17,267 nt of DNA, taken from IMG/VR virus record IMGVR_UViG_2565956714_000008, positions 1 to 17,267 of that record, one strand, 5' to 3'. A program made the position numbers and the translations under genes. The DNA is from a virus (taxonomy: Duplodnaviria; Heunggongvirae; Uroviricota; Caudoviricetes). Under the pieces are notes generated by a model. It ran no database searches. It saw only the letters and a program-made list of their open reading frames with translations, and was not told where the DNA came from. Positions 379-17,267 of the stretch are shown here, one piece after another (position 1 is the first letter of the stretch; the number at the start of each line of letters is the position of its first letter).

Positions 379-393
379 GTTGGAGTCATTACC
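1..393 (+). mobile_element. IS1 insertion sequence, 3'-terminal 393 bp (rest of element lies upstream of window start)
   Basis: 1-378 translates to the C-terminal part of IS1 InsB; 371-393 (atcaataagttggagtcattacc) is the IS1 terminal inverted repeat. Recognised from memory of IS1. Confidence 0.9.
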
Positions 394-1991: not shown

Positions 1992-2290
1992 TCACACAAT
2001 AACTTTGAGATCGCAGATTGTTTTACTTTTACAGCATTCGTCCCCCCATTGTTGGGCAAATATAGATTGGGCCAGAGCACGAAAGTTAATACCACGTTCG
2101 CACAGCTCCTCCAACAGCACGACAAGATGCCACATACTGCGCCCCAGTCGGTTCAGTTTACAGACTAGCAGTGCGTTCCCTGCCGATGATGTCCTGACCA
2201 GTTTTTTCAGTCCGGACCTCCTGCCACGGTTTTACGTTGAAGTGGTAACCCTGAGCACGCAGTTCTTCAGTCAGGCGTGGTGCACCGTAA
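1992..2290 (-). pseudogene. pinH: Serine recombinase (invertase/resolvase) relic, frameshifted and truncated
   Basis: Minus-strand translation of about 2040-2170 gives ...[38 protein letters not shown]..., resembling the conserved core of Hin/Gin/Pin-type serine recombinases (pattern WKLDRLGRS...L..L.ERGI.F.SL); the upstream part is in another frame and no intact N-terminal catalytic region is present. Symbol by locus memory only. Confidence 0.5.
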
Positions 2291-2564
2291 CGCTGTTATT
2301 GCTGGGTAAGATCAAAAAACTTTCAGGCAGCTAAGGAAAGTTGAACCAGACATTAGATGAAATATTTCAACCAATTACAGCACCAATTCAGTCACTGCCA
2401 GCCCACCAAATAAATCAAGGGGTTACATGAAAACGTAGCCCCTTTTTCTTTGGTAGTGACACTAAAATGGATGTAGTGTGAAGAATAATCCCGTTTACTC
2501 AATCAATAATACATATTGTTTCAATCTACGTTATTATCTCTTTGTAAAAATTGCCATTTATTAA

Positions 2565-3356
2565 TCATTGAAAACTGCTTTTAGAACTTGATACAACGGG
2601 ACTAGTCACAACAGGACTATTCTCAACGGGATCATCCTCAGAGGAACTATCATCAAAGTCATCATCCATAAATAAAATATCATCGAATGGTGCCACGCCC
2701 GTGATGAGTTTTATTTTATTATTACGATCAGTCAATACTCCACTTAAACCGTTTTCGCTCACAGGTTTTAATGATTTTTCATTACTCTTGTTGTAAGCAG
2801 GCGCATTAAAAATACACGGAGTATCAACATCAAACAATGACGTTCCCCAGTTCACATATTGAATATCATAGTTACTGAAGTTCTGTCCAGAAAAGAAGCA
2901 CCCCTTAAAATCCAATCCACGTAAATTATATAAACCACCCTCTTCTTTTTGGAGAGTAATGTTAATTTTGGCTATCTCCCGGACATCATCGCCATTTTTG
3001 TATTTGAATACCGTTTCAAGATGTTCTCCAGACAGCTTGACTTCAGGAAATAATTTGAAATCAAAGCCTATATTATTATGTGTCAACGTAGATGAACAAA
3101 AAATGGAAAAAGCTTGCAGTGCTGAATTATAGCTATCGATTTTATCTTGAGGCTGAGCTCTTGGTAAAAACTTATAGCAACACTCATAAAAATTAAACAG
3201 AAGCTCTGAAGACCTTGTATTTTTATCAAATAATACCCCCTTGAACTCATTCACAAACGCATCTTTTTTTTCTTGAATATCTATGGGGTGTTCCTTTGAC
3301 TCTGACAAAGATGAAATCTCATCTATTTTGTTTTCATATGAATTACGTGATTCCAT
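2565..3356 (-). CDS. Hypothetical protein, 263 aa, AT-rich, acidic Ser/Asp-rich C-terminus
   Basis: Long uninterrupted minus-strand ORF in AT-rich DNA; no recognisable domain; no clear Shine-Dalgarno before ATG 3356. Position corresponds to ypjB if my recollection of the K-12 gene order is right. Confidence 0.55.
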   Translation of the reverse strand: MESRNSYENKIDEISSLSESKEHPIDIQEKKDAFVNEFKGVLFDKNTRSSELLFNFYECCYKFLPRAQPQDKIDSYNSALQAFSIFCSSTLTHNNIGFDFKLFPEVKLSGEHLETVFKYKNGDDVREIAKINITLQKEEGGLYNLRGLDFKGCFFSGQNFSNYDIQYVNWGTSLFDVDTPCIFNAPAYNKSNEKSLKPVSENGLSGVLTDRNNKIKLITGVAPFDDILFMDDDFDDSSSEDDPVENSPVVTSPVVSSSKSSFQ

Positions 3357-3455
3357 ACAGACATTTGGCGGCGTTTCTAAAATAACACTACGCGTACTAC
3401 TTGGCTTAAGTAAACCAACATGAAAATCACTTTTTCTTATATTATCGAAAAGGTT

Positions 3456-3938
3456 CTATTCATTTCTTTTAGCGCATTCAAAAAACTGATCGGCATTATT
3501 TTTATTCGATAATTTTTTAGTTTCAGAAAACACATTTTCATTGTTTTCCAGCTTTAGTTTAATGAGAAGATTTTCCCAGACCTGCTTGCTTAAACATATT
3601 ACGTCAGGCTCACCAGAACTAACTAACTCGTGATTATTATTAAAGTGTACGTTGAATACCTTTAAGTTATTTTCACCAACTTCATATTTAATACGTTTTA
3701 ATTGTTCTCCAGCTCCCATAATGACAAAGGCGTTGCCTTCTTGATATATACATTCAGACATCATTTTTTGTAAAGTTTCAAGAGCACCGCGATACGTCTC
3801 TGATGCAGCTTCCTTACAAATTAATTTTAAAATACTATGAGCTAGTAGCTCCATGTGTTTAGAAGATTTATTTTCATTATAACTTCCACTACCCAAAACT
3901 GCGCTAGCGTTAAATCCGTTGCTTTTACTAACTAACAT
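3456..3938 (-). CDS. Hypothetical protein, 160 aa, AT-rich
   Basis: Minus-strand ORF with GAGGA 7 nt upstream of ATG 3938; same strand as and 100 bp upstream of the 263-aa ORF (likely co-transcribed). No recognisable domain. Position corresponds to ypjC in K-12 gene order. Confidence 0.55.
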   Translation of the reverse strand: MLVSKSNGFNASAVLGSGSYNENKSSKHMELLAHSILKLICKEAASETYRGALETLQKMMSECIYQEGNAFVIMGAGEQLKRIKYEVGENNLKVFNVHFNNNHELVSSGEPDVICLSKQVWENLLIKLKLENNENVFSETKKLSNKNNADQFFECAKRNE

Positions 3939-4688
3939 TGTCTATTCCTCAATTAATGTCTACATGGCTATTTTTAATGTTATTACTGTTTGTCACTATA
4001 AAAAAACGCTCATTTGAGACAATTACTGACATTAACTGCTTCACTTGCTACGCATGGAACTTTTAATTAAATTAGCACAGGAATGTTAAATTTAATAAAC
4101 AAAAGGTTATTTCGCTGTATGATAAAAAAAACCGTTATAATTTATTAGTGAAAATCGTTTTTCAAGTGTTAGAAATTTATATCTCAATAGCGTTGGTTAA
4201 TGAGCATAGCCACGCTCCTGTAACGCTCACAAAACTCATCTGCCTGCGGCGGGTGTTCTGGTCAGTAGTAGATGTTTAAGGCGTGGCAGAGACATTTCAT
4301 CCTTACTCTACGGCATTGTTCTACATACATTGGTTGTGGTACTCACTTATCATCAGTGAGCGAACAGAGAATAGTTCAGTGATTTGAGTAATTAACCTGA
4401 TTAAATGAAGGGGTATAATAAATGATAATACTCTGGCTTTATCGTTAATTACTTAATTCCACATGTAAGCAATTTGCCCGCTTGGCATAGCAGGCATTTT
4501 TTCCAGGTACTTTTGAATGAGTACTGATGGATAAATACATTGCAGTGGCGTGCCACGTACCAAAACACCAGCCCTCATTCGAAACCACCCACCGCACTTC
4601 TTCCTTGAAATGGCGTTAGTCATGAAATATAGACCGCCATCGAGTACCCCTTGTACCCTTAACTCTTCCTGATACGTAAATAATGATT

Positions 4689-4733
4689 TGGTGGCCCTTG
4701 CTGGACTTGAACCAGCGACCAAGCGATTATGAG
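4689..4733 (-). repeat. att core copy: 45-nt duplicate of the tRNA-Ile2 3' end (acceptor/T-arm to anticodon loop), marking the left boundary of the integrated element
   Basis: tggtggcccttgctggacttgaaccagcgaccaagcgattatgag matches 15430-15474 at 44 of 45 positions (single C/T difference); the sequence diverges immediately after, and the region upstream in tRNA orientation is not tRNA-like. Confidence 0.85.
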
Positions 4734-4842
4734 TTGGTTGATAACCCTTTACTTACAGATACTTAGCGATACTTTTCAATACCTTAGCATTTTTTAAAAC
4801 TACTGTATAAATACCTGTATATACCCCAAAATACTTCTTTAC

Positions 4843-4890
4843 GGTATCCTATAGGTATCCTGGAGCAGAACAAGCGATTTTCCAGGATAC
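4843..4890. promoter_or_regulatory. Putative integrase arm-type binding sites (GGTATCCT direct repeats plus inverted copy)
   Basis: ggtatcctataggtatcctgg at 4843-4863 and inverted copy tccaggatac at 4881-4890; a near-identical block ggtatcctataagtatcctgg occurs at 15367-15387 beside the other att core. Function inferred. Confidence 0.4.
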
Positions 4891-4914
4891 CAGATCGCTT
4901 GGTGGGGTGTATGA

Positions 4915-6336
4915 GTGAAATTATTCAGATTCTCTAAAGTAAAAATTGCAGAACTGCCAACGCCGGAACATGGACAGGTCGAATATGGTGATACGGAGGT
5001 TAACGGGCTGCGTGTCCGTGTAGGTTCGTCTGGTGTGAAAAGTTTCTGCATTTCCCGTAAGCGTAACGGAAAATTTATTCGTGCAACGCTGGGGCGTTTT
5101 CCTGATCTGAGCGTGGATAATGCCAGGGCTAAAGCTATGGAACTCCTTGGCGAAGTCGCCACAACGGGGATAAATCCGAACATAGCAAAGCGCACTAACA
5201 ACAAGGCCATGATAACGCTGAGTGAGGCGATTGACGCCTACGTAAAAAATCGTGGCCACCGCCTGAAACCCTCCACAGAAAAACAGTACCGCAGCATATT
5301 ACAGAATTATTCCGGTGACTGGATGGCCCATACCCTCGCCAGTATTTCCCGCGAACGGGTGGAACAACGGCATAAGGCCATCACTGATGGGGCTGTATGG
5401 TTCGGTGCTGATAAAACCACGTTACGGGCTGGGGTTGGTACAGGAAGCAAGGCACAGGCCGATTTATGGGCGCGTGCGCTACGTGCTGTGTGTCGGTTTG
5501 CGCATGATCATTACCGTGATGATGCGGGTAATACTCTTTTACCGGATCCGCCGACTCTGGTACTGAGCACCAAGCGCCAGTGGCACGGAACGGTAAGAAA
5601 AACGGAACGTATCCGCCTGCATGATTTTCCCCGCTGGTTTGCTGCTGTAGCTGCTGTGCGCGACCAGGGCGAACAGGAAAGGGATGATATAGCTGTTACG
5701 GTATGTGATGCCGTGGAAATGGCACTGTTTACCGGACTGAGGAAATCAGAAGTTTTTGGCCTTACGTGGGATCGCGTGAATATGGGCGGTCGCTTTTTCT
5801 GGATAGACACCACGAAAAACGGGGATCCGCTTGAACTGCCGATCACTGATACGTTGCGGAAAATGTTTCTTCGCAGGCTAAAAAACAAAGCTGCTGATGA
5901 TGTGCTGGTGTTTCCTGGCGTGAAGGGAGTGATTCAGGAGACACGGCACATCATAGACCGGATAAGCGCGGCTACCATTCCTGAGGCGAACGATGAAATG
6001 CTCTTCCCTGTCCCGTTTAAGTGGCACGACGCACGCCGGACGTTCGGAACGGTTGCTGAGCTGGTGGGCGTGGGTAATTACATCCTCAAGCGCCTGATGA
6101 ATCACCGCACTATGCGAAGTGCCGACGTAACGCAGGGGTATTTACATTTCGGTGCTGATGAACTGCTGGAGCCAGCATCACGGATAGAACGGGCAATTCT
6201 GGAACATGCCGGGCTGGTGGAGAGTAAAAAATCTATCGATGCGCAATTACTTTCCGCACTGGAGGGCATGAGTGATGATGAAAAACGTCGTTTACTATTT
6301 GCTATAGTACAAGAAAAGAATGACATATATGGGTGA
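4915..6336 (+). CDS. int: Tyrosine recombinase / integrase, P4-like with N-terminal arm-binding domain
   Basis: 473-aa ORF starting GTG 4915. The N-terminus (LPTPEHGQVEYGDTEVNGLRVRVGSSGVKSFCISRKRNGKFIRATLGRFPDLSVDNARAKAMELLGEV) fits the arm-binding domain pattern of P4-family integrases; C-terminal region has catalytic-domain signatures (LFTGLRKSEV, HDARRTFGT, TQGYLHF). Lies 180 bp inside the att repeat. Confidence 0.9.
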   Translation: MKLFRFSKVKIAELPTPEHGQVEYGDTEVNGLRVRVGSSGVKSFCISRKRNGKFIRATLGRFPDLSVDNARAKAMELLGEVATTGINPNIAKRTNNKAMITLSEAIDAYVKNRGHRLKPSTEKQYRSILQNYSGDWMAHTLASISRERVEQRHKAITDGAVWFGADKTTLRAGVGTGSKAQADLWARALRAVCRFAHDHYRDDAGNTLLPDPPTLVLSTKRQWHGTVRKTERIRLHDFPRWFAAVAAVRDQGEQERDDIAVTVCDAVEMALFTGLRKSEVFGLTWDRVNMGGRFFWIDTTKNGDPLELPITDTLRKMFLRRLKNKAADDVLVFPGVKGVIQETRHIIDRISAATIPEANDEMLFPVPFKWHDARRTFGTVAELVGVGNYILKRLMNHRTMRSADVTQGYLHFGADELLEPASRIERAILEHAGLVESKKSIDAQLLSALEGMSDDEKRRLLFAIVQEKNDIYG

Positions 6337-7045
6337 TAACAATATATCGGTCAAACAATATATTATTTATTCGGTTATGAATGATTTAATTACTGGTGGG
6401 CGAGACTCTTCAGTTTTAAACGTTCCTGTATCTTTATCCCCGAAAAACTCCACCATAGAGGCTATAAAACGCTTGATTGATGATATAAGAGATTATTTTT
6501 ATAAATCAAAGTATCCAACAAGAGAATTTCTTTTGTGTTATGGTTTAGAATTAAGAGAAATCGAGCAATATCCTATTGAATTAGCTATAAGAATGGATTC
6601 ATGTGGTTTTTTAATATTTGATAGTAAACTATCTTGTCAGGTTGTCGATACTTTAAATTCAGCAGTTGCATTGTACCATGTCGGAATGCGTAATCACGCA
6701 GACAAACTTACTAGGGTTGGTGTTGAGTTATTGCTTAATGACTTTTTTGAAGAAATTATATCGAACCATGAAAAAGATAAAAAAATAAAAGATGCTTTAT
6801 CCTTATCACAGAAAGAAAAAGCGCGCAAACCAAGAAATCATTATTACAATGAAGTTATGCACGTAATTAAACTAACATGGGAAAAGTACCCTAAAGCCAG
6901 TAAAACAGGTTTATTGAACGAGCTTTCTGTTTACTATCATGGGAAAGTAAGTAAAAACACTCTGGATAAATGGATTAAAGAATCAGGAGCACAACCACCA
7001 AGACCTGATAAATATTCTTCGTTTGAACTTGTTCACCCCCAATAG
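6320..7045 (+). CDS. Hypothetical protein, 241 aa, markedly AT-rich cargo gene; possible HTH near C-terminus
   Basis: ORF overlaps the integrase stop by 17 nt (ATG 6320; alternative ATG 6329). Base composition is visibly more AT-rich than the flanking integrase and regulator genes. No recognisable catalytic motif; C-terminal KASKTGLLNELSVYYHGKVSKNTLDKWIKE looks HTH-like. Confidence 0.55.
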   Translation: MTYMGDNNISVKQYIIYSVMNDLITGGRDSSVLNVPVSLSPKNSTIEAIKRLIDDIRDYFYKSKYPTREFLLCYGLELREIEQYPIELAIRMDSCGFLIFDSKLSCQVVDTLNSAVALYHVGMRNHADKLTRVGVELLLNDFFEEIISNHEKDKKIKDALSLSQKEKARKPRNHYYNEVMHVIKLTWEKYPKASKTGLLNELSVYYHGKVSKNTLDKWIKESGAQPPRPDKYSSFELVHPQ

Positions 7046-7073
7046 CTGGCTAGTGTATCTTAATAGCTGGCTA
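7041..7073. repeat. Two direct repeats aatagctggcta spaced 21 bp, upstream of the Xis/AlpA-like gene
   Basis: aatagctggcta at 7041-7052 and 7062-7073; a partial third copy (ctggctatt) near 7110. Possible regulator binding sites. Confidence 0.3.
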
Positions 7074-7150
7074 TTAAGGCTAAATAACTGGTAACCTCCC
7101 CACAGCAACTGGCTATTGGGCTAAAAACAAAATACCCATTGATTGATATT

Positions 7151-7184
7151 TATCACCGTTGTTACTTAGAAGTACACGGTGATA
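7151..7184. promoter_or_regulatory. Inverted repeat TATCACCGT-N16-ACGGTGATA overlapping the ribosome-binding region of the downstream HTH gene; candidate operator
   Basis: Perfect 9-bp arms at 7151-7159 and 7176-7184. The half-site TATCACCG resembles lambda-type operator half-sites, although the spacing differs from lambda operators. Confidence 0.4.
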
Positions 7185-7187
7185 GAT

Positions 7188-7397
7188 ATGAATTTAAAGA
7201 AATCTGATTTATCAACTGACCGCCTTACACGTGCTGAAGCTGCTGCCTACCTTGGCGTTAACAATCAAACGCTGGCGAACTGGGCCTGTACTGGCAAGGT
7301 AAAAATCCCTTTCCATAAGCTGGGGCGCAAAGTGCTGTATATGCGCACTGATCTCGATGCTTATCTTGCATCCACTCGCAGAACGCAGACGGTGTAA
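7188..7397 (+). CDS. Xis/AlpA-superfamily helix-turn-helix DNA-binding protein (excisionase-like or induction regulator)
   Basis: 69 aa from ATG 7188 (track start GTG 7179). LTRAEAAAYLGVNNQTLANWACTGKVKIPFHKLGRKVLYMRTDLDAYL fits the excisionase-family HTH pattern (L..EAA.YLGVS..TL..W...G.IP..K.GR...Y...DLDAYL). Confidence 0.75.
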   Translation: MNLKKSDLSTDRLTRAEAAAYLGVNNQTLANWACTGKVKIPFHKLGRKVLYMRTDLDAYLASTRRTQTV

Positions 7398-7744
7398 GGG
7401 GGAGTGATGGCACATAAAACAAAGGCGACCGCAGAGGGCCGCCAGTGGCATAACACTAAACTTGAGCATATCCAGAATACCAGGTTGTTGGCTGGTGGGC
7501 AATGCTATCAGTCTGGCTCGATTCGCTGCCATGCCTGCAATGAGCGTATTTTCCTAGAATACTCTTTAAGGTACTTCTCAAGGATAAACGCACATGGTGC
7601 GAATCTCTCCGGTTCATGTTCGTTTACCGCATTTTTGCGTTGTTTTTTCTTGGATGAGGATAATTTCTTTAATGATTTGTCAGTCATCGTAGATACCTGT
7701 AACCCTGTGCGCCACAGTTCACCGCACCACGGCGCTGGTGATGG

Positions 7745-7870
7745 TTACTCCTGCTCTTTGGCCTTGCGCCGCTGGCGGCGTTTGATCTCATCAAGGATTT
7801 TTCTTGGTAAGAAGCCTGCTGGTTTATTCTCTGGTAGAGAAAGTTTGTTATCGGTCTGCTTTTCAGTCAT
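7745..7870 (-). CDS. Small basic protein, 41 aa, translationally coupled to the upstream RHH gene
   Basis: ATG at 7870 lies 3 nt after the RHH stop codon (ATGtaTGA arrangement); encodes MTEKQTDNKLSLPENKPAGFLPRKILDEIKRRQRRKAKEQE. Below the ORF-track length cut-off; a weak call. Confidence 0.25.
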   Translation of the reverse strand: MTEKQTDNKLSLPENKPAGFLPRKILDEIKRRQRRKAKEQE

Positions 7871-7873
7871 ACA

Positions 7874-8065
7874 TCAGCCTTTAGGTTCAATGCCGCGTCG
7901 CTTTAGTTCGGCACGAGCTAATTCTTTAAACCAATTGCCGAGGGTTAGGCCATCGGCGGTTGCTGCCTCGTTTACTTGCTGGCGTAGTTCTTTGCTAATT
8001 CGTATCTGGAATGTCGGCGACCATCCCTCGCCGCGTGGTGATTTATCCCGCTTTAATGTTGACAT
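7874..8065 (-). CDS. Ribbon-helix-helix (Arc/CopG-like) DNA-binding protein, candidate repressor
   Basis: 63 aa; ...FQIRISKELRQQVNEAATADGLTLGNWFKELARAEL has the beta-strand/helix/helix layout of RHH proteins. Its start codon is embedded in a perfect palindromic operator (8064-8109). Confidence 0.6.
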   Translation of the reverse strand: MSTLKRDKSPRGEGWSPTFQIRISKELRQQVNEAATADGLTLGNWFKELARAELKRRGIEPKG

Positions 8066-8109
8066 GTACGTACGTAACTCCTATTATCATCAATATTACG
8101 TACGTACAT
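8064..8109. promoter_or_regulatory. Palindromic operator: two copies of the self-complementary 10-mer TACGTACGTA within perfect 14-bp inverted arms, in the divergent promoter region
   Basis: atgtacgtacgtaa (8064-8077) and ttacgtacgtacat (8096-8109) are exact reverse complements, separated by 18 bp that include the RHH gene's AGGAG ribosome-binding site. Confidence 0.55.
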
Positions 8110-8133
8110 TAACAGTAAGTGCAACAAAAAACA

Positions 8134-8168
8134 AAGCCCCGCAAGTGTCGTTACCACTCGCAGGGCTT
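8134..8168 (-). terminator. Hairpin with 12 of 14 paired bases, followed by a U-run on the minus strand only
   Basis: aagccccgcaagtg / cactcgcagggctt with loop tcgttac; A-tract 8121-8133 gives UGUUUUUUGUU after the hairpin on the minus strand. On the plus strand it would sit in the 5' UTR of the replication operon. Function uncertain. Confidence 0.3.
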
Positions 8169-8204
8169 CTAACCACCAACGATAACGAGAGTATCGAGGT
8201 AGCT

Positions 8205-8408
8205 ATGAGAAATCATACCATACACCCGCAAGGGCGGGATTCGCACAACCTGAATAAATTCGCCTGGCGTTTTATCGCCCTGAGCGCCGCAAAACCGCGT
8301 GTGATTACCATCGTGGCCACCAGCGAACAGGAAGCACGCCAGCACTCCCCGGCTGGCTGCGTGATGGTATTCGCCGCCCGTATTCGTCAGGGGGTGTGCC
8401 ATGCCTGA
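8205..8408 (+). CDS. Hypothetical protein, 67 aa, first gene of the plus-strand operon leading to the replication gene
   Basis: ATG 8205 with GAGGT 5 nt upstream; codon usage on this strand is typical of E. coli coding DNA (ctg, gcc, acc, atc, cgt, ccg), unlike the overlapping antisense ORFs; stop overlaps the next start (8401). Confidence 0.45.
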   Translation: MRNHTIHPQGRDSHNLNKFAWRFIALSAAKPRVITIVATSEQEARQHSPAGCVMVFAARIRQGVCHA

Positions 8409-8721
8409 TATGTCAAATTACCAGTACCTGATTAATCCGCATTTTAACTGTGAGCATGATATTGCTAAAAAGGTTTATTCCGCTGCGGATGGGGCGACTG
8501 ACAATATATCAATGGCCGTTGCGTCAATTGGTAGCCTGATGTGGCATGCGTCAGAAAATGAGGACTATGACGAAAAGGCCATGCGCATTGATATGGGTAA
8601 TATCGGTTTGTTACTGGCAATGCTTGGACATTTTGATATTTCGTTACGGTGCACCATTGAAAATGCCACAGATGCATTAAATGCCATAAAGAAAGCGAAT
8701 ACTGATTCAAATCGGGGATAA
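8401..8721 (+). CDS. Hypothetical protein, 106 aa
   Basis: ATG 8401 with GGGGG 6 nt upstream; overlaps the preceding stop; no recognisable domain. Confidence 0.5.
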   Translation: MPDMSNYQYLINPHFNCEHDIAKKVYSAADGATDNISMAVASIGSLMWHASENEDYDEKAMRIDMGNIGLLLAMLGHFDISLRCTIENATDALNAIKKANTDSNRG

Positions 8722-8727
8722 ATAATC

Positions 8728-9027
8728 ATGAGAACGTATTTATCTGGCTTGACTGCCAGCGGTTATGCACATCCCAAAATTATCCCCGGCGCTATTTATC
8801 TGGATAAGAACGGTAACAGAGTAACGGTAAAAGAACTGATGTTTGACCGTGTGTATTTTATTCGTGATGGCTATTCATTTCATAGTTCGCTGAACGTGGA
8901 GATCTTTATTAGCAGATTCAGGCGGGAAATCCCGCTTTCCAGAAATAACCATGTGTCACGTGTGAATGTGGATAAAAAACTACAGGAACTGAAAAACATG
9001 ATTGCCGCGTGGAGAGAGCAGAAATGA
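8728..9027 (+). CDS. Hypothetical protein, 99 aa
   Basis: ATG 8728 (GGGGA 9 nt upstream); its stop overlaps the replication-gene start (ATGA at 9024-9027), indicating translational coupling. Confidence 0.5.
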   Translation: MRTYLSGLTASGYAHPKIIPGAIYLDKNGNRVTVKELMFDRVYFIRDGYSFHSSLNVEIFISRFRREIPLSRNNHVSRVNVDKKLQELKNMIAAWREQK

Positions 9028-10841
9028 AAAAAGCGCCAAATTTAAAACACCAGTCGCGTGACAAAATGACGGAAGTCATCATTTTTGCGGGTAGTGATGC
9101 GTGGGCACATGCGAAGCAGTGGCAGGAACAGGACGGGCGACTGGCTGGCGATAACGTGCCTCCTGTCTGGCTTGGAGAGCAACAACTTGCCGAACTGGAC
9201 AACCTGCAAATCGTACCGGACGGACGCTATCGCGTGCGTCTCTATCAGGCGGGGTTATTGCGTCCGGGGCTTGTTAATACCATCGGGCAGAAACTGGCAG
9301 CGGCAGGTGTCAGGGATGCTGATTATTATCCTGAAGGAATGCACAGCCAGAAACGGGAGAACTGGCGCGAATATCTGGAACGTGAACGGGCAGAGCAGGC
9401 GGAAAAGAAAAAGGTAGTTGAACTGCCTGTAAAGAAAAAAGAGCGGGTAAAAGACGATAACGCTTCATCACTGGCGCTTAACCAGATGGGAGCAAGTCAA
9501 CGCGGCGAAGTTCTCCTGGCACATTATGGCGGTGAATTGGCGATTCATGCTGACTCTGACACTGTTCACCATTACAACGGCGTTGTATGGGAGCCAGTAC
9601 AGGATAAAGAATTACAGCGAGCTATGGCACAGATTTTCATTGATGCGGAGATCAGCTATTCGCAGAACGCCATTAAATCGGCGGTCGATACCATGAAGTT
9701 AAGTTTGCCTGTAATGGGGAATACAGCCCGTAACCTGATTGGATTCAGTAACGGGGTATTTGATACCAGAACAGGTAATTTTCGGGGGCATAACAAAAAC
9801 GACTGGTTGTTAATTGCCAGTGAATTACCTTTCAGCCCACCAGCAGAGGGGGAAACACTGGCAACACATGCGCCGAATTTCTGGAAGTGGTTACGCCGTT
9901 CGGTGGCTGAGAATGACCGCAAGGCAGATCGCGTACTGGCGGCATTATTCATGGTGCTGGCGAACCGGTACGACTGGCAGTTATTCATTGAGGTAACAGG
10001 GCCGGGGGGAAGTGGTAAAAGCGTGATGGCGGAGATTTGCACCATGCTGGCGGGTAAGGCTAATACAGTATCAGCAAGCATGAAGGCGCTGGAAGATGCA
10101 AGGGAACGTGCGTTAGTGGTTGGCTTTTCGCTGATTATCATGCCGGATATGACCCGCTACGCTGGTGATGGGGCAGGGATTAAGGCCATTACAGGCGGTG
10201 ACAAGGTGGCAATTGACCCGAAACACAAAGCCCCCTACTCAACGCGTATTCCGGCAGTAGTGCTGGCGGTTAACAATAACGCCATGTCATTCAGTGACCG
10301 CAGCGGGGGGATCTCACGTCGTCGGGTGATATTCAATTTTTCGGAAGTTGTACCGGAGAACGAACGCGATCCGATGCTGGCGGAAAAAATAGAAGGTGAG
10401 CTGGCGGTAGTGATTCGCCATCTGCTTACACGGTTTGCTGACCAGGACGAAGCCAGACGCCTGTTATATGAGCAGCAGAAATCTGAAGAAGCACTGGCGA
10501 TAAAGCGAGAGGGGGATTCGCTGGTGGACTTCTGCGGCTATCTCATGGCGTCGGTAATGTGTGATGGCCTGTTAGTGGGTAATGCTGAAATTGTGCCATT
10601 CAGCCCGCGCAGGTATCTCTATCATGCCTATCTGGCTTATATGAGGGCTCATGGGTTTGGTAAACCTGTAACACTGACGCGCTTCGGTAAAGATATGCCT
10701 GGGGCAATGGCGGAATATGGCAGGGAGTATATAAAACGGAAAACGAAGCACGGTTTACGTTCAAACGTGACACTGACGGAGGAATCAGAAGACTGGATGC
10801 CATCATGTGTATCAGTCACTAATGACGATAGCAAAAATTAA
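9024..10841 (+). CDS. Replication initiator: primase/SF3-helicase-like P-loop NTPase (Pri-Rep type)
   Basis: 605 aa from ATG 9024 (GGAGAGAG 5 nt upstream; track start GTG 9009). Walker A VTGPGGSGKSVMAEIC and a downstream hydrophobic-acidic segment (LIIMPDM) as candidate Walker B, in the C-terminal half; immediately followed by an iteron cluster as in PICI/SaPI and P4-type replication modules. The N-terminal half has no motif I can assign. Confidence 0.8.
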   Translation: MKKAPNLKHQSRDKMTEVIIFAGSDAWAHAKQWQEQDGRLAGDNVPPVWLGEQQLAELDNLQIVPDGRYRVRLYQAGLLRPGLVNTIGQKLAAAGVRDADYYPEGMHSQKRENWREYLERERAEQAEKKKVVELPVKKKERVKDDNASSLALNQMGASQRGEVLLAHYGGELAIHADSDTVHHYNGVVWEPVQDKELQRAMAQIFIDAEISYSQNAIKSAVDTMKLSLPVMGNTARNLIGFSNGVFDTRTGNFRGHNKNDWLLIASELPFSPPAEGETLATHAPNFWKWLRRSVAENDRKADRVLAALFMVLANRYDWQLFIEVTGPGGSGKSVMAEICTMLAGKANTVSASMKALEDARERALVVGFSLIIMPDMTRYAGDGAGIKAITGGDKVAIDPKHKAPYSTRIPAVVLAVNNNAMSFSDRSGGISRRRVIFNFSEVVPENERDPMLAEKIEGELAVVIRHLLTRFADQDEARRLLYEQQKSEEALAIKREGDSLVDFCGYLMASVMCDGLLVGNAEIVPFSPRRYLYHAYLAYMRAHGFGKPVTLTRFGKDMPGAMAEYGREYIKRKTKHGLRSNVTLTEESEDWMPSCVSVTNDDSKN

Positions 10842-10853
10842 ACTTATGGAATA

Positions 10854-11085
10854 ACTGTTCACCACTGTTCACCCTGTCATAAATATCTTTTATATCAGTA
10901 TATTATAGGGTGAACAGTTATTTATGAACTATTCACCAAACTATTCACTGTTCACCTTTTTGGTTGTTTATTGAGCTTCAAGGGTGAACAGTGGTGAACA
11001 GTTGGTGAATAGTTTTTGTAAAACTGTTCACCCCTTAACAGTATGAATTTAAATGGAAAATATCAAAAGGTGAACAGGTGAAGGG
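10854..11085. repeat. Iteron-type replication origin: about 11 copies of ACTGTTCACC / GGTGAACAGT in both orientations within AT-rich spacers
   Basis: tgttcacc at 10856-10863, 10866-10873, 10949-10956, 11025-11032; variant tattcacc at 10930-10937; inverted ggtgaaca at 10909-10916, 10983-10990, 10993-11000, 11069-11076; variants ggtgaata at 11004-11011 and ggtgaagg at 11078-11085. Several copies are tandem with ~10-bp period. Confidence 0.7.
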
Positions 11086-11128
11086 TTAAAATACAAAAAT
11101 TTTAATTTATTGCTCTGAGATAAAGCCT

Positions 11129-11374
11129 ATGACAGCGAAGCGCACAAAAAAAACACAATCGCACGCCCTTGATTTGACGGAACACTGGTTAAGGGGGTCG
11201 ATAAAAATCATCGACCGCAACGCCGGGGAAGGATACGCGAAAGCACATCCCGAACTGATAAGCGCATTCATGACCACGGCGGCGGCAAATTTTGCCACGC
11301 TAACAGAGCGGGAGATTGCCGAAGCGGAACAGGTAACAACCATCAACGTTAAAACCGGAGAGCAGACAGCATGA
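11129..11374 (+). CDS. Hypothetical protein, 81 aa
   Basis: ATG 11129 with only a weak ribosome-binding site; stop overlaps the SSB start (ATGA at 11371-11374). No recognisable domain. Confidence 0.45.
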   Translation: MTAKRTKKTQSHALDLTEHWLRGSIKIIDRNAGEGYAKAHPELISAFMTTAAANFATLTEREIAEAEQVTTINVKTGEQTA

Positions 11375-11793
11375 CAGCACAGATAGCGGCTTACGGACGG
11401 CTGGTGGCTGACCCGCAGTTAAAGACCACTAGCAAGGGTACACAAATGACGATGGCTAGTATGGCGGTCCCCCTTCCGTGCAGCCAGGCAGATGACGGAA
11501 CGGCGACGATGTGGTTATCCGTCCTGGCGTTTGGCAGACAGGCCGACGCACTGGCAAAACACCACAAAGGCGAACTGGTGAGCGTGGCGGGTAACATGCA
11601 GGTAAGCCAGTGGACAGGCCAGAACGGCGAAACGCGGCAGGGCTGGCAGGTTATCGCAGACAGTGTAATCAGTGCCAGAACGGCGCGACCGGGCGGCAAA
11701 AAAGGTCAACAGGGCCAGGCTACTGACGCACTGAACAGGGCAAAACAACAGTCGGGGAATGATGATCCGTACGGCGATAATATACCGTTTTAA
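11371..11793 (+). CDS. ssb: Single-stranded DNA-binding protein (SSB) with acidic C-terminal tip
   Basis: 140 aa; OB-fold region WLSVLAFGRQADALAKHHKGELVSVAGNMQVSQWTGQNGETRQGWQVIAD parallels E. coli SSB ([51 protein letters not shown]); Gly/Gln-rich linker and C-terminal DDPYGDNIPF resembling the SSB tail DDDIPF. Confidence 0.8.
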   Translation: MTAQIAAYGRLVADPQLKTTSKGTQMTMASMAVPLPCSQADDGTATMWLSVLAFGRQADALAKHHKGELVSVAGNMQVSQWTGQNGETRQGWQVIADSVISARTARPGGKKGQQGQATDALNRAKQQSGNDDPYGDNIPF

Positions 11794-11803
11794 ATTCTGC
11801 AAA

Positions 11804-11839
11804 TAAAAAAATGCCGGAAGAAAATAGATTTTCCGGCAT
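11804..11839 (-). terminator. Stable hairpin (9-bp stem ATGCCGGAA/TTCCGGCAT) between ssb and the capsid gene, forming a canonical intrinsic terminator only in the minus orientation
   Basis: Stem 11811-11819 and 11831-11839, loop 11 nt; A-run 11804-11810 gives a U-run after the hairpin on the minus strand; no U-run follows it on the plus strand. Confidence 0.35.
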
Positions 11840-12010
11840 GCTACATAAATCCCGACCAAAGGAAGTAAATACATTAACACGAATTATCAGCACTGAAGTT
11901 GTCACGGCAGATTTTATACAACATTGCACTTGGTTGCATGTATTCGCATAGCAAATATCGGTGATAGCATATATCCACAATTATTTTTAATGAATGCAAA
12001 GAGGATGCGT

Positions 12011-13051
12011 ATGGTTGATTTATATTCGCCTGCCCAGCTTGTGCAGGTGGCTAATGCTGAAGATGTGCAAAAAAAATTAAATGTGTTGTTTACCAGTTTG
12101 TTTTTCACTCGCTCGGTAATGTTTGAATCGAGAGACATTATTCTTGATACGATCGACGATCCAAATATCCCGATCGCGGCGTTTTGCTCTCCTATGGTGG
12201 GCAGTAAAGTTTCACGAGATGAGGGATACGAATCAAAAACAATTCGCCCTGGCTATATGAAACCGAAAAGCAGCATTGATCCAAATAAGTTAGCTGTGCG
12301 CCCTGCTGGTGTGTCACCTGAGCAATACAATGCTTTTGGGGCGCGTAATATTAAAGTTAAACAGGCGATTGTAAATCAGGCTAAAGCTATTCGTACACGT
12401 ATTGAATGGCTTGCTGTTCAGGCAATCACAACGGGGAAAAATATCATTGAGGGCGATGGTATTGAACGTTATGAGCTGGACTGGAATATAAAACCACAAA
12501 ATATCATCACTCAGTCTGGCGGTACTGAGTGGTCAGGTAAGGATAAAGAAACTTTTGATCCAAATGATGATATTGAGAGCTACGCAGAATTTAGTGAGGG
12601 CGTCACTAATATCATCATTATGGGCGGTAATGTATGGAAGAAATACCGTTCATTCAGAGCGATAAAAGAGGCTCTGGATACCCGTCGTGGTTCTAATTCC
12701 GAACTGGAAACGGCCCTTAAAGACCTTGGTGATTCGGTGAGTTTTAAAGGGTATATGGGCGATGTTGCGATTGTTGTTTACAGCGGGCGTTATACCGACG
12801 AGGACGGAACTGAAAAATATTTCCTTGATCCTGATTTGATGGTGCTTGGCAATACGGCTCTCCAGGGGATTGTCGCTTATGGCGGTATTCAGGATCCGGA
12901 GCTAATCCGGATGGGGCTGACTAAAGCCGAACTTGCACCGAAAAACTATATTGTGCCTGGTGATCCGGCTATTGAATATGTGCAGACACATTCAGCACCA
13001 CAGCCAATACCGGCCCGTATCAATCGTTTTGTTACCGTTCGCATTGGCTAA
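12011..13051 (+). CDS. Major capsid protein, lambda gpE family
   Basis: 346 aa from ATG 12011 (AAAGAGGA, 5-nt spacer; track start 11924 is upstream in frame). Long colinear matches to lambda gpE as I recall it: ITQSGGTEWSGKDKETFDPNDDIESY vs ITQSGGTEWSKRDKSTYDPTDDIEAY; DTRRGSNSELETALKDLG vs DTRRGSNSELETAVKDLG; GDVAIVVYSGRY vs GDVAIVVYSGQY; MVLGNT in both. Confidence 0.9.
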   Translation: MVDLYSPAQLVQVANAEDVQKKLNVLFTSLFFTRSVMFESRDIILDTIDDPNIPIAAFCSPMVGSKVSRDEGYESKTIRPGYMKPKSSIDPNKLAVRPAGVSPEQYNAFGARNIKVKQAIVNQAKAIRTRIEWLAVQAITTGKNIIEGDGIERYELDWNIKPQNIITQSGGTEWSGKDKETFDPNDDIESYAEFSEGVTNIIIMGGNVWKKYRSFRAIKEALDTRRGSNSELETALKDLGDSVSFKGYMGDVAIVVYSGRYTDEDGTEKYFLDPDLMVLGNTALQGIVAYGGIQDPELIRMGLTKAELAPKNYIVPGDPAIEYVQTHSAPQPIPARINRFVTVRIG

Positions 13052-13061
13052 GGGGGGAGCA

Positions 13062-13403
13062 ATGGCTACTCATTACACTGAACTCATGGCTGGCACTGAA
13101 GCACTGGTTACTACGCTGGGGATATTTTCAGCTAATAAAGGGGTAATTCCTGCATTTACGCCACTGATGCAGGAAGATACAACAGGTGCACTGGTGGTAT
13201 GGGATGGTACGAGTGCAGGTAAAGCTGTTTATGTTTCCGCTGTACAACTCGATACAGCGAAAAAAACACAGGCTCAGGTCTATAAGACAGGTGTCTTAAA
13301 TGTTGATGCTCTTAACTGGCCTGAGTCAGTAAAAGAACTGTCAGTAAAGGTTGCAGCGTTTGTTGGCTCAGGTATTTCTGTTCAGCCGCTGGCTCGTGTG
13401 TAA
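13062..13403 (+). CDS. Head decoration protein, lambda gpD family
   Basis: 113 aa from ATG 13062 (GGGGGGAG upstream). IPAFTPLMQEDTTGALVVWDGTSAGKAV...KTGVLNVDALNWPE...AAFVGSGISV parallels lambda gpD [28 protein letters not shown]...KSGTFRYEDVLWPE...TAFAGTAISIV. Confidence 0.85.
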   Translation: MATHYTELMAGTEALVTTLGIFSANKGVIPAFTPLMQEDTTGALVVWDGTSAGKAVYVSAVQLDTAKKTQAQVYKTGVLNVDALNWPESVKELSVKVAAFVGSGISVQPLARV

Positions 13404-13414
13404 AGGGGGATACA

Positions 13415-13798
13415 ATGCAGAATCATTACAATGACCTTAAGCCAATTGCCGAAATGATGTATCCGGATCCAGCAGTAGAGGAATTAAAGGCTATTGCTGA
13501 CAAAATGCGTTTAAGCGAGCGTCTTGTTGATATGAATCAGGTGATGGAACTTACAACCCTGAGTCGTCGTACACTGCTAAACCTTGAAGCACGTGGAGAG
13601 TTCCCCGAACGCGTGCAGGTTACGGAAGGGCGTAAGGCCTGGTATTTAAGCGAAGTGATCGACTGGATAAACAATATTCCGCGCGCTTCTGAATATTGCC
13701 GCGTACCTGTCCCAAAAAAGCCAGATGCGGCGCTATGCCTCAAGATTGATCGTGTACGCCGCAATGCACGGGATGGTCGCTATAAGCTGATTGGTTGA
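13415..13798 (+). CDS. AlpA-family HTH protein with ~40-aa N-terminal extension, immediately upstream of cos
   Basis: 127 aa, ATG 13415 with GGGGGA 5 nt upstream. MELTTLSRRTLLNLEARGEFPERVQVTEGRKAWYLSEVIDWINN fits the AlpA pattern (T.LSR.T...L...G.FP.PV.LG.R...W...EV..WI). Confidence 0.7.
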   Translation: MQNHYNDLKPIAEMMYPDPAVEELKAIADKMRLSERLVDMNQVMELTTLSRRTLLNLEARGEFPERVQVTEGRKAWYLSEVIDWINNIPRASEYCRVPVPKKPDAALCLKIDRVRRNARDGRYKLIG

Positions 13799-13822
13799 TG
13801 AAATTAGGGCCCGTTCTGGCTG

Positions 13823-14020
13823 GCGGGTCCTTTCCGGCGATCCGGTAGGCTACGGGGCGTCAGGCGCGCGGGTTTTCGCTTTTTATGAAAATTTTCCGGT
13901 TTAAGGCGTTTCCGTTCTTCTTCGCCGTAACTTTATGTTTTTATTTGAAACACCCCCTGAAAAGAAAGGAAACGACAGGTGCTGAAAACGGGCTTTTTGG
14001 CCTCTGTCGTTTCCTTTCTC
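13823..14020 (+). other. Lambda-type cos site: cosQ-like segment, cosN-equivalent 12-mer (13855-13866, divergent) and cosB with R3, I1, R2 and R1 elements
   Basis: From 13867 onward the sequence (cgcgggttttcgctttttatgaaaattttccggtttaaggcgtttccgttcttcttcg ... ctgaaaagaaaggaaacgacaggtgctgaaaacgggctttttggcctctgtcgtttcctttctc) is nearly identical to my recollection of lambda left-end bases 13-170, including R3 cgtttccgttct (13907-13918), R2 agaaaggaaacg (13963-13974) and R1 cgtttcctttct (14008-14019). Upstream gcgggtcctttccggcgatccggtaggctacg parallels the lambda right end ACGGGTCCTTTCCGGTGATCCGACAGGTTACG. The 12-mer is GGGCGTCAGGCG here versus GGGCGGCGACCT in lambda. Confidence 0.8.
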
Positions 14021-14339
14021 GTTTTTGAGCAAAACTGGCTCTATACATGCTTAGAAATGCTAGGGTTTTTGCGTAATACAGGTAGTGCAGGAGATTCACC
14101 AGGGGATTATTCATATATGCTGGTAGGCGCTATGTGTTAGTGGTGAGCGAAAAACAATCAAAACCGACACCGTAAAAATAAAAATCACAAATTATCAATT
14201 AGTTGTGCCAGTGGTGATGGCGAATGAAATTTCAAAAACTAGCCTTTTTCCGCGATGCTTTCGCCCCGTGGCAGGCCACCCCACCAGGAGGACCCGCTAC
14301 AATTACGGTATCAACCTCATCACTATGGAGGCCATGACC

Positions 14340-14624
14340 ATGACCGAGACCGAAGCGCTCGAAATAATCCGCAGTATTACCGGAATCAGCCAGGCAACAG
14401 GCAAACAGGAGGCCACGCAGCCGGACAGCGTCACCGCTGAAAATTACGCGCGTGTGGTGGCTGAGGTGATGCGCCGTGACGGTATTGAGCTTAACGGCGT
14501 GGATATGCGCAACATACGAACCAGAGTCCTTGAGTTGCTGGCATACCGTCGCCGTTCTCAACAACGGAGGGAGAGCGCGAAAAATACTTACCAGTGGAAG
14601 AAGCCGGAACGACTGCGGTGGTAA
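14340..14624 (+). CDS. Hypothetical protein, 95 aa, in the position lambda Nu1 occupies relative to cosB but unrelated to Nu1
   Basis: Best-supported start ATG 14340 (GGAGG with 8-nt spacer); in-frame alternatives at 14205 (GTG), 14217, 14325 and 14334. Arg-rich C-terminus; no recognisable domain. Confidence 0.45.
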   Translation: MTETEALEIIRSITGISQATGKQEATQPDSVTAENYARVVAEVMRRDGIELNGVDMRNIRTRVLELLAYRRRSQQRRESAKNTYQWKKPERLRW

Positions 14625-14642
14625 CTTGCTGATATTCCCGAT

Positions 14643-14890
14643 AACGCAAAATTGCGTTGGCTGGTGGGTGAGTTGCAGATCTGCAACTCGACCATGAAAC
14701 TACGGAAACTACCCGTAGTTTGGGTAGTAAGAGTAACACCCAGATTTTGGGGCTTACTCGCGATACCCAAATAAAGGGTATCGGTGGAAGAAATATCGTT
14801 TCTCATATGTGAGTACCGAGGGCGGAATTCCGCCTTCGGTTACTTATTGTGCTCATGCACAGGGAGAGGCGGGTACAAATCTCTGTACCC
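14643..14890. repeat. Cluster of six inverted repeats/palindromes in a ~250-bp non-coding stretch
   Basis: AACGCAA-aa-TTGCGTT (14643-14658); perfect 20-bp palindrome GAGTTGCAGATCTGCAACTC (14670-14689); AAACTACGG/CCGTAGTTT (14697-14721) overlapping ACTACCC/GGGTAGT (14708-14728); GATACCC/GGGTATC (14762-14782); GGCGGAATTCCGCC (14821-14834); GGGTACA/TGTACCC (14871-14890). Confidence 0.45.
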
Positions 14891-15033
14891 TGACGTCTTC
14901 CGGACTGCCAGCCCCATCGTTTTTTTACGCCCGCGAAAAATAAAAATTGTTTGTATGTGAGTATTGTAGCCAGCAAAAGCTCTTTCTTTAGTGGCTTATT
15001 GTTTCTAATAGATTTTGGGAGGTAGAAATGGGA

Positions 15034-15053
15034 GGCCCAGCGAAAGCTGGGCC
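15034..15053 (-). terminator. GC hairpin with GAAA tetraloop (GGCCCAGC-gaaa-GCTGGGCC) just downstream of the small minus-strand ORF
   Basis: 8-bp perfect stem; on the minus strand it follows the stop at 15072 and is followed by a C/U-rich tract (UCCCAUUUCU), so not a textbook U-run. Confidence 0.3.
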
Positions 15054-15071
15054 GAGCTTGTTACGCTGTCA

Positions 15072-15215
15072 TTACTTCAGCATGATAACTAAAGCTATAC
15101 ATACTAGCACTACGGCTATTGGGCATAGACCTAAATTGCCAAGTGCTGCGATTAAACCTGTAACGGCAATCACACGTGCAGACAGCAGGTCTGAGCCCTT
15201 TCTTAAAGTATCCAT
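15072..15215 (-). CDS. Small hydrophobic protein, 47 aa, with a predicted C-terminal transmembrane helix
   Basis: ATG at 15215 preceded by GGAGG with 5-nt spacer; encodes MDTLRKGSDLLSARVIAVTGLIAALGNLGLCPIAVVLVCIALVIMLK. Below the ORF-track length cut-off. It is antisense to the 100-aa plus-strand ORF 15028-15330, which also has a strong ribosome-binding site, so the call is uncertain. Confidence 0.35.
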   Translation of the reverse strand: MDTLRKGSDLLSARVIAVTGLIAALGNLGLCPIAVVLVCIALVIMLK

Positions 15216-15366
15216 TGATACCTCCGTCAGGGTTTTTGCCGGTCTCTTGGAGAGTTGGGGGCAAAAGTTCAGACCCGTAGCACTTTCTTGTTCGCAGGTG
15301 AACGGCTGCTACGACCCAACTGTTCTGTAGGCATGAGCCAATTCTTACTTGTTAATACTTCTCAGA

Positions 15367-15387
15367 GGTATCCTATAAGTATCCTGG
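15367..15387. promoter_or_regulatory. Putative integrase arm-type sites (second copy of the GGTATCCT repeat block)
   Basis: ggtatcctataagtatcctgg, 43 bp from the tRNA/att core; near-identical to 4843-4863 at the other end of the element. Confidence 0.4.
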
Positions 15388-15429
15388 TAAAGCAAGATAG
15401 TTTGGATACATCTGTAATTCATTGAAATC

Positions 15430-15505
15430 TGGTGGCCCCTGCTGGACTTGAACCAGCGACCAAGCGATTATGAGTCGCCTGCTCTAACCACTGAGCTAAA
15501 GGGCC
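15430..15505 (-). tRNA. ileY: tRNA-Ile2 (anticodon CAU, lysidine-type; anticodon-only tools would call tRNA-Met)
   Basis: Reverse complement of 15430-15505 is a 76-nt tRNA: GGCCCTTTAGCTCAGTGGTTAGAGCAGGCGACTCATAATCGCTTGGTCGCTGGTTCAAGTCCAGCAGGGGCCACCA, with 7-bp acceptor stem (one G-U pair), anticodon loop CUCAUAA and encoded CCA. It matches my memory of E. coli ileX/ileY and differs from elongator and initiator tRNA-Met. ileY chosen from the flanking gene order. Confidence 0.9.
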
Positions 15506-16064
15506 TTGAGTGTGCAATAACAATACTTATAAACCACGCAATAAACATGATGATCATATGATGTAAATAACAGATTTTTATGCGTTCCCATTCACCTTGG
15601 GTCGTGATTACACGCGACATAAAACCCGACACCGCCTCCATTCGCAAAGTCGATACTCGCAGTCAACAAGCAAATGTTAATAATTAGCACTATCTATAGT
15701 TATCATCGATTCAATGATACTTTGTAATGATTTTGTATCTAATAATATAACTTTATTACATTAGCTGAAGAGTTTTCGCATCATTATGATATCTGTTACT
15801 TTTCACTCCATAAAAATAAACTTCGTATAGCAATATATTCTTTCATAGATCTTATTCTGCTAATCATTAGTTTCGTATGAGCGATTTTTGACAGTTGCCT
15901 CTCCAGACCACATCGATAATTAATAAAACAGATTTAAGCATTATCCTTTTCCATATAAATATTGGATAAAAGTAGGACATCTGTTTGCAATTACTTTCAC
16001 AACAATTAAACATTTTTATGTTTCCGTATACATCATATTACTCTACCATTAGAGGAACTTTATT

Positions 16065-17267
16065 ATGTTTTCTATAAAACCAGGACCCAGAAATTTACCT
16101 ATCGACAACCCCACATTGTTATCATGGAACATTACTGACGGGGATCTAAATTCCAAATTAAATACATTAGAATATCTAAACTGTATAACAAATATTATTA
16201 ATTCTTGTGGAGTTTACCCTCAAGGATTAAAAGACAGAGAAATTATATCAACTTTTCACGCAGAAAAAGTTATTAATGATCTGTTAAAAAACGATTATAA
16301 AATTTCCCTTTCTCCAGATACAACTTACCGAGAGTTGAATAAAGCAGCACAGCGTAGCATTACAGCGCCAGACAGGATAGGAGAAAGAAAAACATAGGTT
16401 TATCAACGAGATACAATGATTGAAAGAGGTGATAACAGCGGTGTTTATCAGTATGGTCGTGCTGAACATTTCACCCACATTATATCTGACAAACCTTCCC
16501 CAAAAGATAAATATGTTGCATATGCTATTAACATTCCTGACTATGAGCTGGCAGCCGATGTATATAATATTAACGTGACGTCACCTTCCGGACAGCAAGA
16601 AACATTTAAAATATTAATCAATCCAGAACATCTACGGCAAACACTTGAGCGTAAATCTCTTACTGCTGTTCAGAAATCACAATGTGAAATCATCACCCCC
16701 AAAAAACCTGGCGAAGCGATTCTTCATGCTTTTAATGCCACCTACCAGCAGATCAGAGAAAATATGTCTGAATTTGCACGTTGCCATTATGGGTATATAC
16801 AAATCCCTCCAGTGACAACTTTCCGTGCCGACGGACCAGAAACTCCCGAAGAAGAAAAAGGTTACTGGTTTCACGCTTATCAACCCGAAGATCTTTGTAC
16901 CATCCACAATCCAATGGGAGATTTGCAGGATTTTATCGCATTGGTTAAAGATGCTAAAAAATTTGGTATCGATATCATTCCTGATTATACCTTTAACTTT
17001 ATGGGAATCGGGGGTAGTGGTAAAAATGACCTGGATTATCCCTCTGCTGATATACGAGCGAAGATCAGTAAAGATATAGAAAGTGGTATCCCTGGCTATT
17101 GGCAAGGTCAGGTTTTGATTCCATTTACTATAGATCCAGTAACAAAAGAACGTAAACAAATCCATCCAGAAGATATACATCTCACTGCAAAAGACTTCGA
17201 AGCAAGTAAAGATAATATTTCTAAGGATGAATGGGAAAACCTCCATGCATTAAAAGAAATCGTTTAA
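16065..17267 (+). pseudogene. ygaQ: Alpha-amylase family (GH13-like) gene interrupted by a single in-frame amber codon
   Basis: ORFs 16065-16397 and 16416-17267 are in the same frame, separated only by TAG at 16395-16397 plus six sense codons. The downstream part carries amylase-like motifs (GYIQIPPVTT..., GYWFHAYQPEDLCTIHNPMGDLQDFIALVKDAKKFGIDIIPDYTFNFMG, compare G.TA.Q.SP..., W.RYQP..Y.L.TR.G..DEF..MV..C...GV.IYVD.V.NHM). Symbol from locus memory (ygaQ is next to ileY in K-12 and annotated as a pseudogene); amylase assignment is motif-level only. The gene ends exactly at the window end. Confidence 0.5.

Follow-up and report, generated by a model that had tools for sequence, protein, structure and literature searches.

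The island and its gene content

The DNA analyzed here, referred to as the window, is a stretch of 17,267 nucleotides (positions 1 to 17,267 of the IMG/VR record IMGVR_UViG_2565956714_000008). An island of 10.8 kb (4686-15475) lies within it, bounded by 49-bp direct repeats that are 96% identical. The left repeat, attL, occupies positions 4686-4734, and the right one, attR (15427-15475), covers the 3' end of a tRNA gene (CAT anticodon; 15430-15505, minus strand), the integration target of the island. The genes are ordered as follows: an integrase (int, 4915-6336), a cargo ORF, an HTH_17 gene, an Icd-like gene, a DUF4222 gene, a gene for a D5_N/DUF5906/Pox_D5 protein, the repeats that are the subject of this study, an 81-aa ORF, a single-strand DNA-binding protein (SSB) gene, a capsid homologue of the lambda gpE type, a head-decoration homologue of the gpD type, and an AlpA-family gene. 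Phage_cap_E and HDPD were the only structural families found, and no phage tail or lysis genes were detected among the island ORFs.

Judging by its sequence, this island is a phage satellite of E. coli, namely an EcCICFT073-type phage-inducible chromosomal island (PICI). Its size, its integrase and its own att site agree with this type, in which islands measure 10-15 kb. EcCICFT073, the prototype of the E. coli and Gram-negative PICIs, shares with it the order int, alpA-type regulator, Icd-like gene, DUF4222 gene, pri-rep, ori, small ORF, ssb, capsid and head-decoration genes. The small ORF of EcCICFT073 (gene order of locus L005) is hypothetical and stands in the same place as the 81-aa gene of the window (11129-11374, plus strand), a conserved gene of unknown function (phrog_1231) that begins directly 3' of the repeats. 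The ssb gene follows at 11371-11793 on the plus strand (Pfam SSB, E=4e-16; TIGR00621). The two islands differ in their integration sites, as EcCICFT073 is located between roxA and phoQ and the window island in the tRNA gene.

Among 5426 complete E. coli genomes, 648 (~12%) carry the repeat region with an identity of about 80% or higher. The best match, in E. coli KC-Dl-1, belongs to the same island beside the tRNA-Ile gene next to mug; this tRNA gene differs from the one in the window, and the island thus inserts at two tRNA loci or more. A related PICI whose repeat region is 95.8% identical was deposited as a circular 'plasmid' of 10,790 bp in a finished E. coli assembly (NZ_CP148328.1, locus L088). 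This circle is probably an excised or replicating form of the satellite. The record establishes that an episomal form exists; stable replication does not follow from it, and the circle may be the excised form. Its replication module is as in the window, but it carries a prohead protease/capsid fusion and other cargo.

An initiator-helicase gene upstream of the repeats

The gene that precedes the repeats (9009-10841, plus strand) encodes a protein similar to Pri-Rep and to the alpha protein of phage P4, with matches to Pfam D5_N, DUF5906 and Pox_D5. The ORF opens at a GTG at 9009, and its RefSeq relatives begin at the ATG at 9024, giving proteins of 610 and 605 aa, respectively. Over residues 150-600, which comprise the helicase and the C-terminal domain, identity to P4 alpha is 50.7%. 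The match of the helicase region to the SaPI-type primase-helicase 7OLA was weak (E=3.6e-10). Compared with the EcCICFT073 Pri-Rep, identity is 49% for the whole protein, 37% for the C-terminal domain and 29% for the short segment discussed below as the putative wing.

The C-terminal domain (aa 502-598, encoded by 10512-10802, plus strand) was matched by phmmer to PDB 1KA8, the origin-binding domain of P4 alpha, with E=2.5e-24, and is predicted to be a winged-helix origin-binding domain. P4 alpha binds its origin repeats through its C-terminal winged helix and then unwinds and primes the DNA (PMC4234260, PMC2777425). The SF3 helicase and the C-terminal domain of the window protein are homologous to those of P4 alpha. 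The N-terminus is different. In P4 alpha it consists of a zinc-finger and TOPRIM primase domain, and an alignment showed that residues 1-150 of the window protein are not equivalent to it. These residues matched no Pfam or NCBIfam model, their only match being a PHROG of unknown function, and the same module also occurs fused to RepA/AAA_25-type helicases. We read the N-terminus as a short, degenerate TOPRIM-like fold or remnant that lacks the zinc finger and the conserved acidic residues of P4 alpha. Priming would then be left to the host, probably to DnaG.

An array of 12 iterons between the initiator gene and the next gene

The stop codon of the initiator gene (10841) and the start of the 81-aa gene (11129) are separated by a non-coding intergenic region (10842-11128) in which a single ORF of 20 aa is the longest and no other reaches 20 aa. 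Its A+T content is 68%, as against 53% for the island, which bears out the preliminary description of AT-rich DNA directly 3' of a Pri-Rep-like gene. Across the 17,267 bp of the window there are 11 exact copies of the octamer TGTTCACC, eight of them within 10856-11076. When the 10-mer ACTGTTCACC was searched with at most one mismatch, 10 sites were found in 10854-11078; two weaker copies, ACTATTCACT at 10940-10949 and GGTGAAGGGT at 11077-11086, bring the total to 12. The sites lie on both strands, and tandem sites are spaced by 10-11 bp, or by 7-8 bp where they overlap. The preliminary description had reported about 11 copies of an 8-10-bp motif in both orientations with a tandem spacing of ~10 bp, which is confirmed.

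The motif was also counted in background sequence. Dinucleotide-preserving shuffles of the window gave an expectation of 0.56 copies of TGTTCACC, none of 200 shuffles reached 11 copies, and 76 kb of the E. coli CFT073 chromosome contained four. Exact and one-mismatch scans found no second cluster elsewhere in the island, only single copies. No Rfam family matched the region, and a full-text literature search with the octamer TGTTCACC alone returned only primer lists.

The 12 sites are arranged in two modules that face each other head to head. Module A (10854-10956, plus strand) has sites at 10854-10863 (+), 10864-10873 (+), 10909-10918 (-), 10928-10937 (+, ACTATTCACC), 10940-10949 (+, degenerate) and 10947-10956 (+). 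Module B (10983-11086, minus strand) has sites at 10983-10992 (-), 10993-11002 (-), 11004-11013 (-, GGTGAATAGT), 11023-11032 (+), 11069-11078 (-) and 11077-11086 (-, degenerate). Each follows the same plan: three tandem GGTGAACAGT-type sites at a spacing of 10-11 bp, about 13 bp, one inverted TGTTCACCC, an A+T-rich spacer of 35-36 bp, and two tandem sites. The spacers, of 35 bp in module A (10874-10908, 80% A+T) and 36 bp in module B (11033-11068, 78% A+T), are candidate unwinding elements; the inner spacers are 77-80% A+T. Between the modules, a centre of 26 bp (10957-10982), recognized from the inverted repeats I1 and I2, forms the axis of symmetry. A very stable single-stranded hairpin was predicted over the array centre (z=-7.4); it is explained by the head-to-head arrangement of the modules, and a separate function is not needed to account for it.

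Could the repeats be something other than initiator-binding sites? EcCICFT073-type PICIs carry cos sites (PMC6092414) and the region is A+T-rich, which might suggest a site of packaging (cos/pac) or of recombination, or else a cluster that arose by chance in DNA of low complexity. We consider any of these exceedingly improbable. No lambda cosN-like sequence was found anywhere in the window, the att sites of the island sit at 4686 and 15427, and the count was never reached by the shuffles. Conservation also argues against chance, as no columns are better conserved between genera than those of the iteron cores: in a comparison of ten TGTTCACC elements from seven genera, 70 of 95 iteron columns were invariant, as against 36 of 146 columns outside the iterons (Fisher p=7e-14).

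The repeats could also be operators, through which Pri-Rep or another regulator controls transcription of the ssb-capsid block, or terminates or autoregulates pri-rep, with no role as an origin. The array does lie between two co-directional gene blocks. In iteron plasmids, initiator-bound iterons often repress nearby promoters too. Against this, neither a sigma-70-like promoter nor an intrinsic terminator was predicted in 10600-11400, and 12 sites in a conserved, A+T-spaced, two-module layout that is common to the proven origins of P4 and EcCICFT073 far exceed what an operator needs. A purely regulatory array is therefore very unlikely.

The modules resemble the P4 origin

The annotation of the P4 genome (NC_001609) places 'ori type 1 repeats' in ori (9310-9413) and in crr (4291-4590), and their sequence is TGTTCACC; the P4 iteron is thus identical to that of the window. 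The P4 ori also has the same module plan, with three tandem sites, one inverted site, a 35-bp A+T spacer as long as that of module A, and two tandem sites. The three elements, namely the reverse complement of 10845-10965, the segment 10975-11095 and the P4 ori, align colinearly. Relative to the P4 ori as numbered, module A is inverted and module B is in the same orientation.

The two systems also differ. In P4, ori and crr are ~4.7 kb apart; the window has one compound locus, its modules 26 bp apart. P4 carries sid, delta and psu, and the island carries the PICI set of lambda-type capsid and decoration homologues and ssb. No counterpart of the Cnr copy-number regulator, which P4 encodes upstream of alpha, was detected, as BLASTP of P4 ORF106 to either ORF upstream of the initiator gene gave no alignment.

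The P4 comparison raises the only serious rival to the origin. The crr of P4 is a cis-acting helper region and not an initiation site. It lies directly 3' of alpha, in exactly the position that the array occupies relative to the initiator gene in the window, and its units match the right two-thirds of the window module. The position of the array 3' of the gene does not, on its own, prove that initiation takes place there, and the array could be nothing but a crr-like enhancer in cis that binds the initiator and loops to, or loads it at, a distinct initiation site in another part of the island. We nevertheless regard this as unlikely. Both modules of the window are of the full P4 ori type and include the arm of three tandem sites, which is missing from crr. 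No second cluster that could serve as the initiation site is present in the island, the motif being found otherwise as three single, unconserved copies. In addition, relatives examined with 3-kb flanks (below) have a single array, and the pri gene of EcCICFT073 together with its 3' region sufficed for plasmid replication (PMC6092414).

Relatives conserve the array, and iteron class tracks a short protein segment

One genome per species was scanned for relatives, which gave 80 Enterobacterales loci (L008-L087), of which 79 had enough downstream sequence. Within 450 bp beyond the 3' end of the initiator gene, these 79 loci contain a median of eight cognate sites and a minimum of four, with at least six sites in 67 of them; control segments treated by the same procedure had a median of one site and never as many as six. 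The spacing >-10->-43-<-21->-11->-8-> ... <-10-<-21->-44-<-8-< recurs both with the ~600-aa and with the ~830-aa form of the protein. Each locus has a single array, and no second P4-like ori was detected within the 3-kb flanks. The split arrangement of ori and crr in P4 therefore looks like the exception. The ~830-aa form is present in many copies in Xenorhabdus and Photorhabdus genomes, with up to five loci in X. ehlersii.

Five iteron classes can be distinguished among the relatives, namely TGTTCACC, TGTCTACC, TCTCCACC, TGTCCGCC and TGTCCACC, all with the same site layout. When the C-terminal domains were aligned, the differences between classes were concentrated after a conserved EYGxEY. 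The segment that follows reads xKRK--TKxGxRSNVTL in class TGTTCACC, KRKQCTRGPDKGRTISNVLL in class TGTCTACC, IRKKS-TKGNMRSNIRL in class TCTCCACC and KKAESKKKATRGRIQSNITL in class TGTCCGCC. In the window protein, it corresponds to aa 575-592 (IKRKTKHGLRSNVTLTEE; encoded by 10731-10784, plus strand). Its identity is 75% within classes versus 37% between them, compared with 85% versus 78% for the rest of the domain.

Two proteins illustrate this pattern. That of E. ruysiae (L011), whose iteron is TGTCTACC, is identical to the window protein at 91% of positions in the helicase and 84% in the C-terminal domain, and at 29% in the segment. P4 alpha has the same iteron as the window; its identities are 51%, 44% and 59%, respectively. 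From these comparisons, iteron class appears to track this short C-terminal segment, although the covariation is imperfect, as the identity of the same-class proteins of Xenorhabdus and Photorhabdus to the window protein is only 41% there.

The segment may correspond to the wing of the winged helix. In this fold, a beta-hairpin wing follows just after the recognition helix and, in RFX, touches the DNA (PMC2777425). The assignment of aa 575-592 as a putative wing follows from this general topology; when the C-terminal domain was modelled with AlphaFold from its sequence alone, the pLDDT was 38.8, too low for use.

A probable replication origin of the P4 type

Position, composition, homology and the comparative data all fit an iteron origin that binds its initiator beside the initiator's own gene. 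We conclude that 10842-11128 is very likely the vegetative replication origin of the ~10.8-kb EcCICFT073-type PICI, built from two head-to-head modules of the P4 ori type. As for its kind, the element is almost certainly a PICI origin made from P4-type iterons, and not a new kind of biological system.

Experimental work on EcCICFT073 provides the closest precedent. Fillol-Salom et al. (2018) placed the PICI origin immediately 3' of pri-rep, with two sets of iterons flanking A+T-rich DNA (PMC6092414). A temperature-sensitive plasmid carrying the EcCICFT073 pri-ori is kept alive at 44 C, and the delta-ori and delta-pri versions do not keep it (PMC6092414). The EcCICFT073 ori has the same two-module head-to-head layout 3' of pri-rep as the window; its iteron is TGTCTACC and not TGTTCACC. 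The same origin plan is found in the cf-PICI-like vB_KppS-Ant, with the iteron GTTCACC. The paper that founded the PICI family took the replication modules of PICIs and P4 to have evolved independently (PMC6092414). The comparisons made here indicate a homology between them that extends to the iteron itself and to the layout of the modules.

More distant systems share the general arrangement. In SaPIs, the origin lies immediately 3' of rep and consists of iteron sets flanking A+T-rich DNA (PMC6092414). Their iterons and DNA-binding domain bear no relation to those of the window. A functional primase, either separate or fused, is usual in SaPIs. Iteron theta plasmids of the pSC101, R6K, RK2 and P1 type have direct iterons of 17-22 bp, and their Rep_3-type winged-helix initiators recruit the host DnaB with the help of DnaA. 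They have in common with the window an A+T-rich region for unwinding and, next to the gene of the initiator, repeated sites for its binding. In the window, however, the sites measure 8-10 bp and lie on both strands, the initiator is an SF3 helicase in its own right, and no DnaA box was found in 10842-11128. The preliminary description had called the locus the classic arrangement of an iteron replicon next to its own initiator gene. The iteron origin beside its gene is supported by homology, position and the relatives; the analogy with plasmid replicons is loose, because the sites are short, lie in both orientations and would be bound by a helicase-initiator.

The observed anatomy, homologies, conservation and iteron-protein covariation suggest a scheme for how the origin might work, in which initiator binding, the site of melting, the point of initiation and priming are predicted from sequence. 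The first step would be excision of the island, brought about by a helper phage. The P4 alpha-like SF3 helicase-initiator, made from the gene just upstream, would bind the 12 phased iterons by its C-terminal winged-helix domain. The high local concentration of initiator would allow the helicase to assemble and the A+T-rich spacers of 35-36 bp to be opened. The island SSB, encoded two genes downstream, could then coat the single strands, and the host replisome would enter and copy the circle, so that the excised circle would be amplified before packaging. By analogy with EcCICFT073, the helper is presumably a lambdoid phage. P4-like satellites depend on P2-like helpers.

Because this PICI and P4-like satellites share the initiator-iteron specificity TGTTCACC, cross-talk between them can be envisaged. 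As a tentative proposal, which we hold to be possible and no better than doubtful, a P4-like element residing in the same cell might, through its alpha protein, fire or titrate the origin of the island, or the reverse might happen, and the iteron classes could be escape variants that insulate satellites from each other. If this were true, differences in a wing segment of ~18 residues, among initiators that are otherwise 80-90% identical, would insulate co-resident satellites. The map presented here resolves, site by site, the origin of a satellite family that ~12% of complete E. coli genomes carry. Its natural iteron classes, each paired with a short variable segment, lend themselves to tests of how the specificity of winged-helix initiators changes, and the classes might be of use in mutually compatible satellite-based vectors.

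Isolated motif copies and other features of the island

Three exact copies of TGTTCACC lie outside the array. The one at 7030-7037 (plus strand), at the end of the cargo ORF (6320-7045), had been placed at 7031-7040 in the preliminary description. That copy is real but shows no sign of function and is probably fortuitous; two further lone copies, at 1776-1783 and 9563-9570, had been missed. No extra lone copies were found in the distant relatives with the same iteron (L003 and L008-L018), and all three copies in the window are probably due to chance. The copies at 7030 and 9563 were considered as a second ori-like or regulatory site, and this was rejected since they are single and missing from these relatives.

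Other observations concern the remaining genes. The cargo ORF encodes 241 aa, has a G+C content of ~33% and lies directly 3' of the integrase gene, in the typical accessory or defence slot of satellites; no match to it was found in Pfam, NCBIfam, PHROGs or PADLOC. Between it and the HTH_17 gene (7179-7397), which is in the alpA position, several copies of the AATAGCTGGCTA / CAACTGGCTATT type occur at 7041-7120 and may be operator sites of a regulatory switch of the island. Besides the HTH_17 protein close to the integrase, the island encodes a second regulator, of the Phage_AlpA family, at 13415-13798, 3' of the head-decoration gene.

The mechanically called ORF at 7404-8408 (334 aa) has an Icd-like domain in its last ~50 residues only. 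RefSeq relatives have here a short Icd-like gene and, on the opposite strand, a YlcI/YnfO gene (7874-8065, minus strand), and the 334-aa ORF is thus probably not real. Finally, the part of the ssb gene that encodes the C-terminus contains a 21-nt direct repeat (11618-11638 and 11674-11694) with 81% identity.
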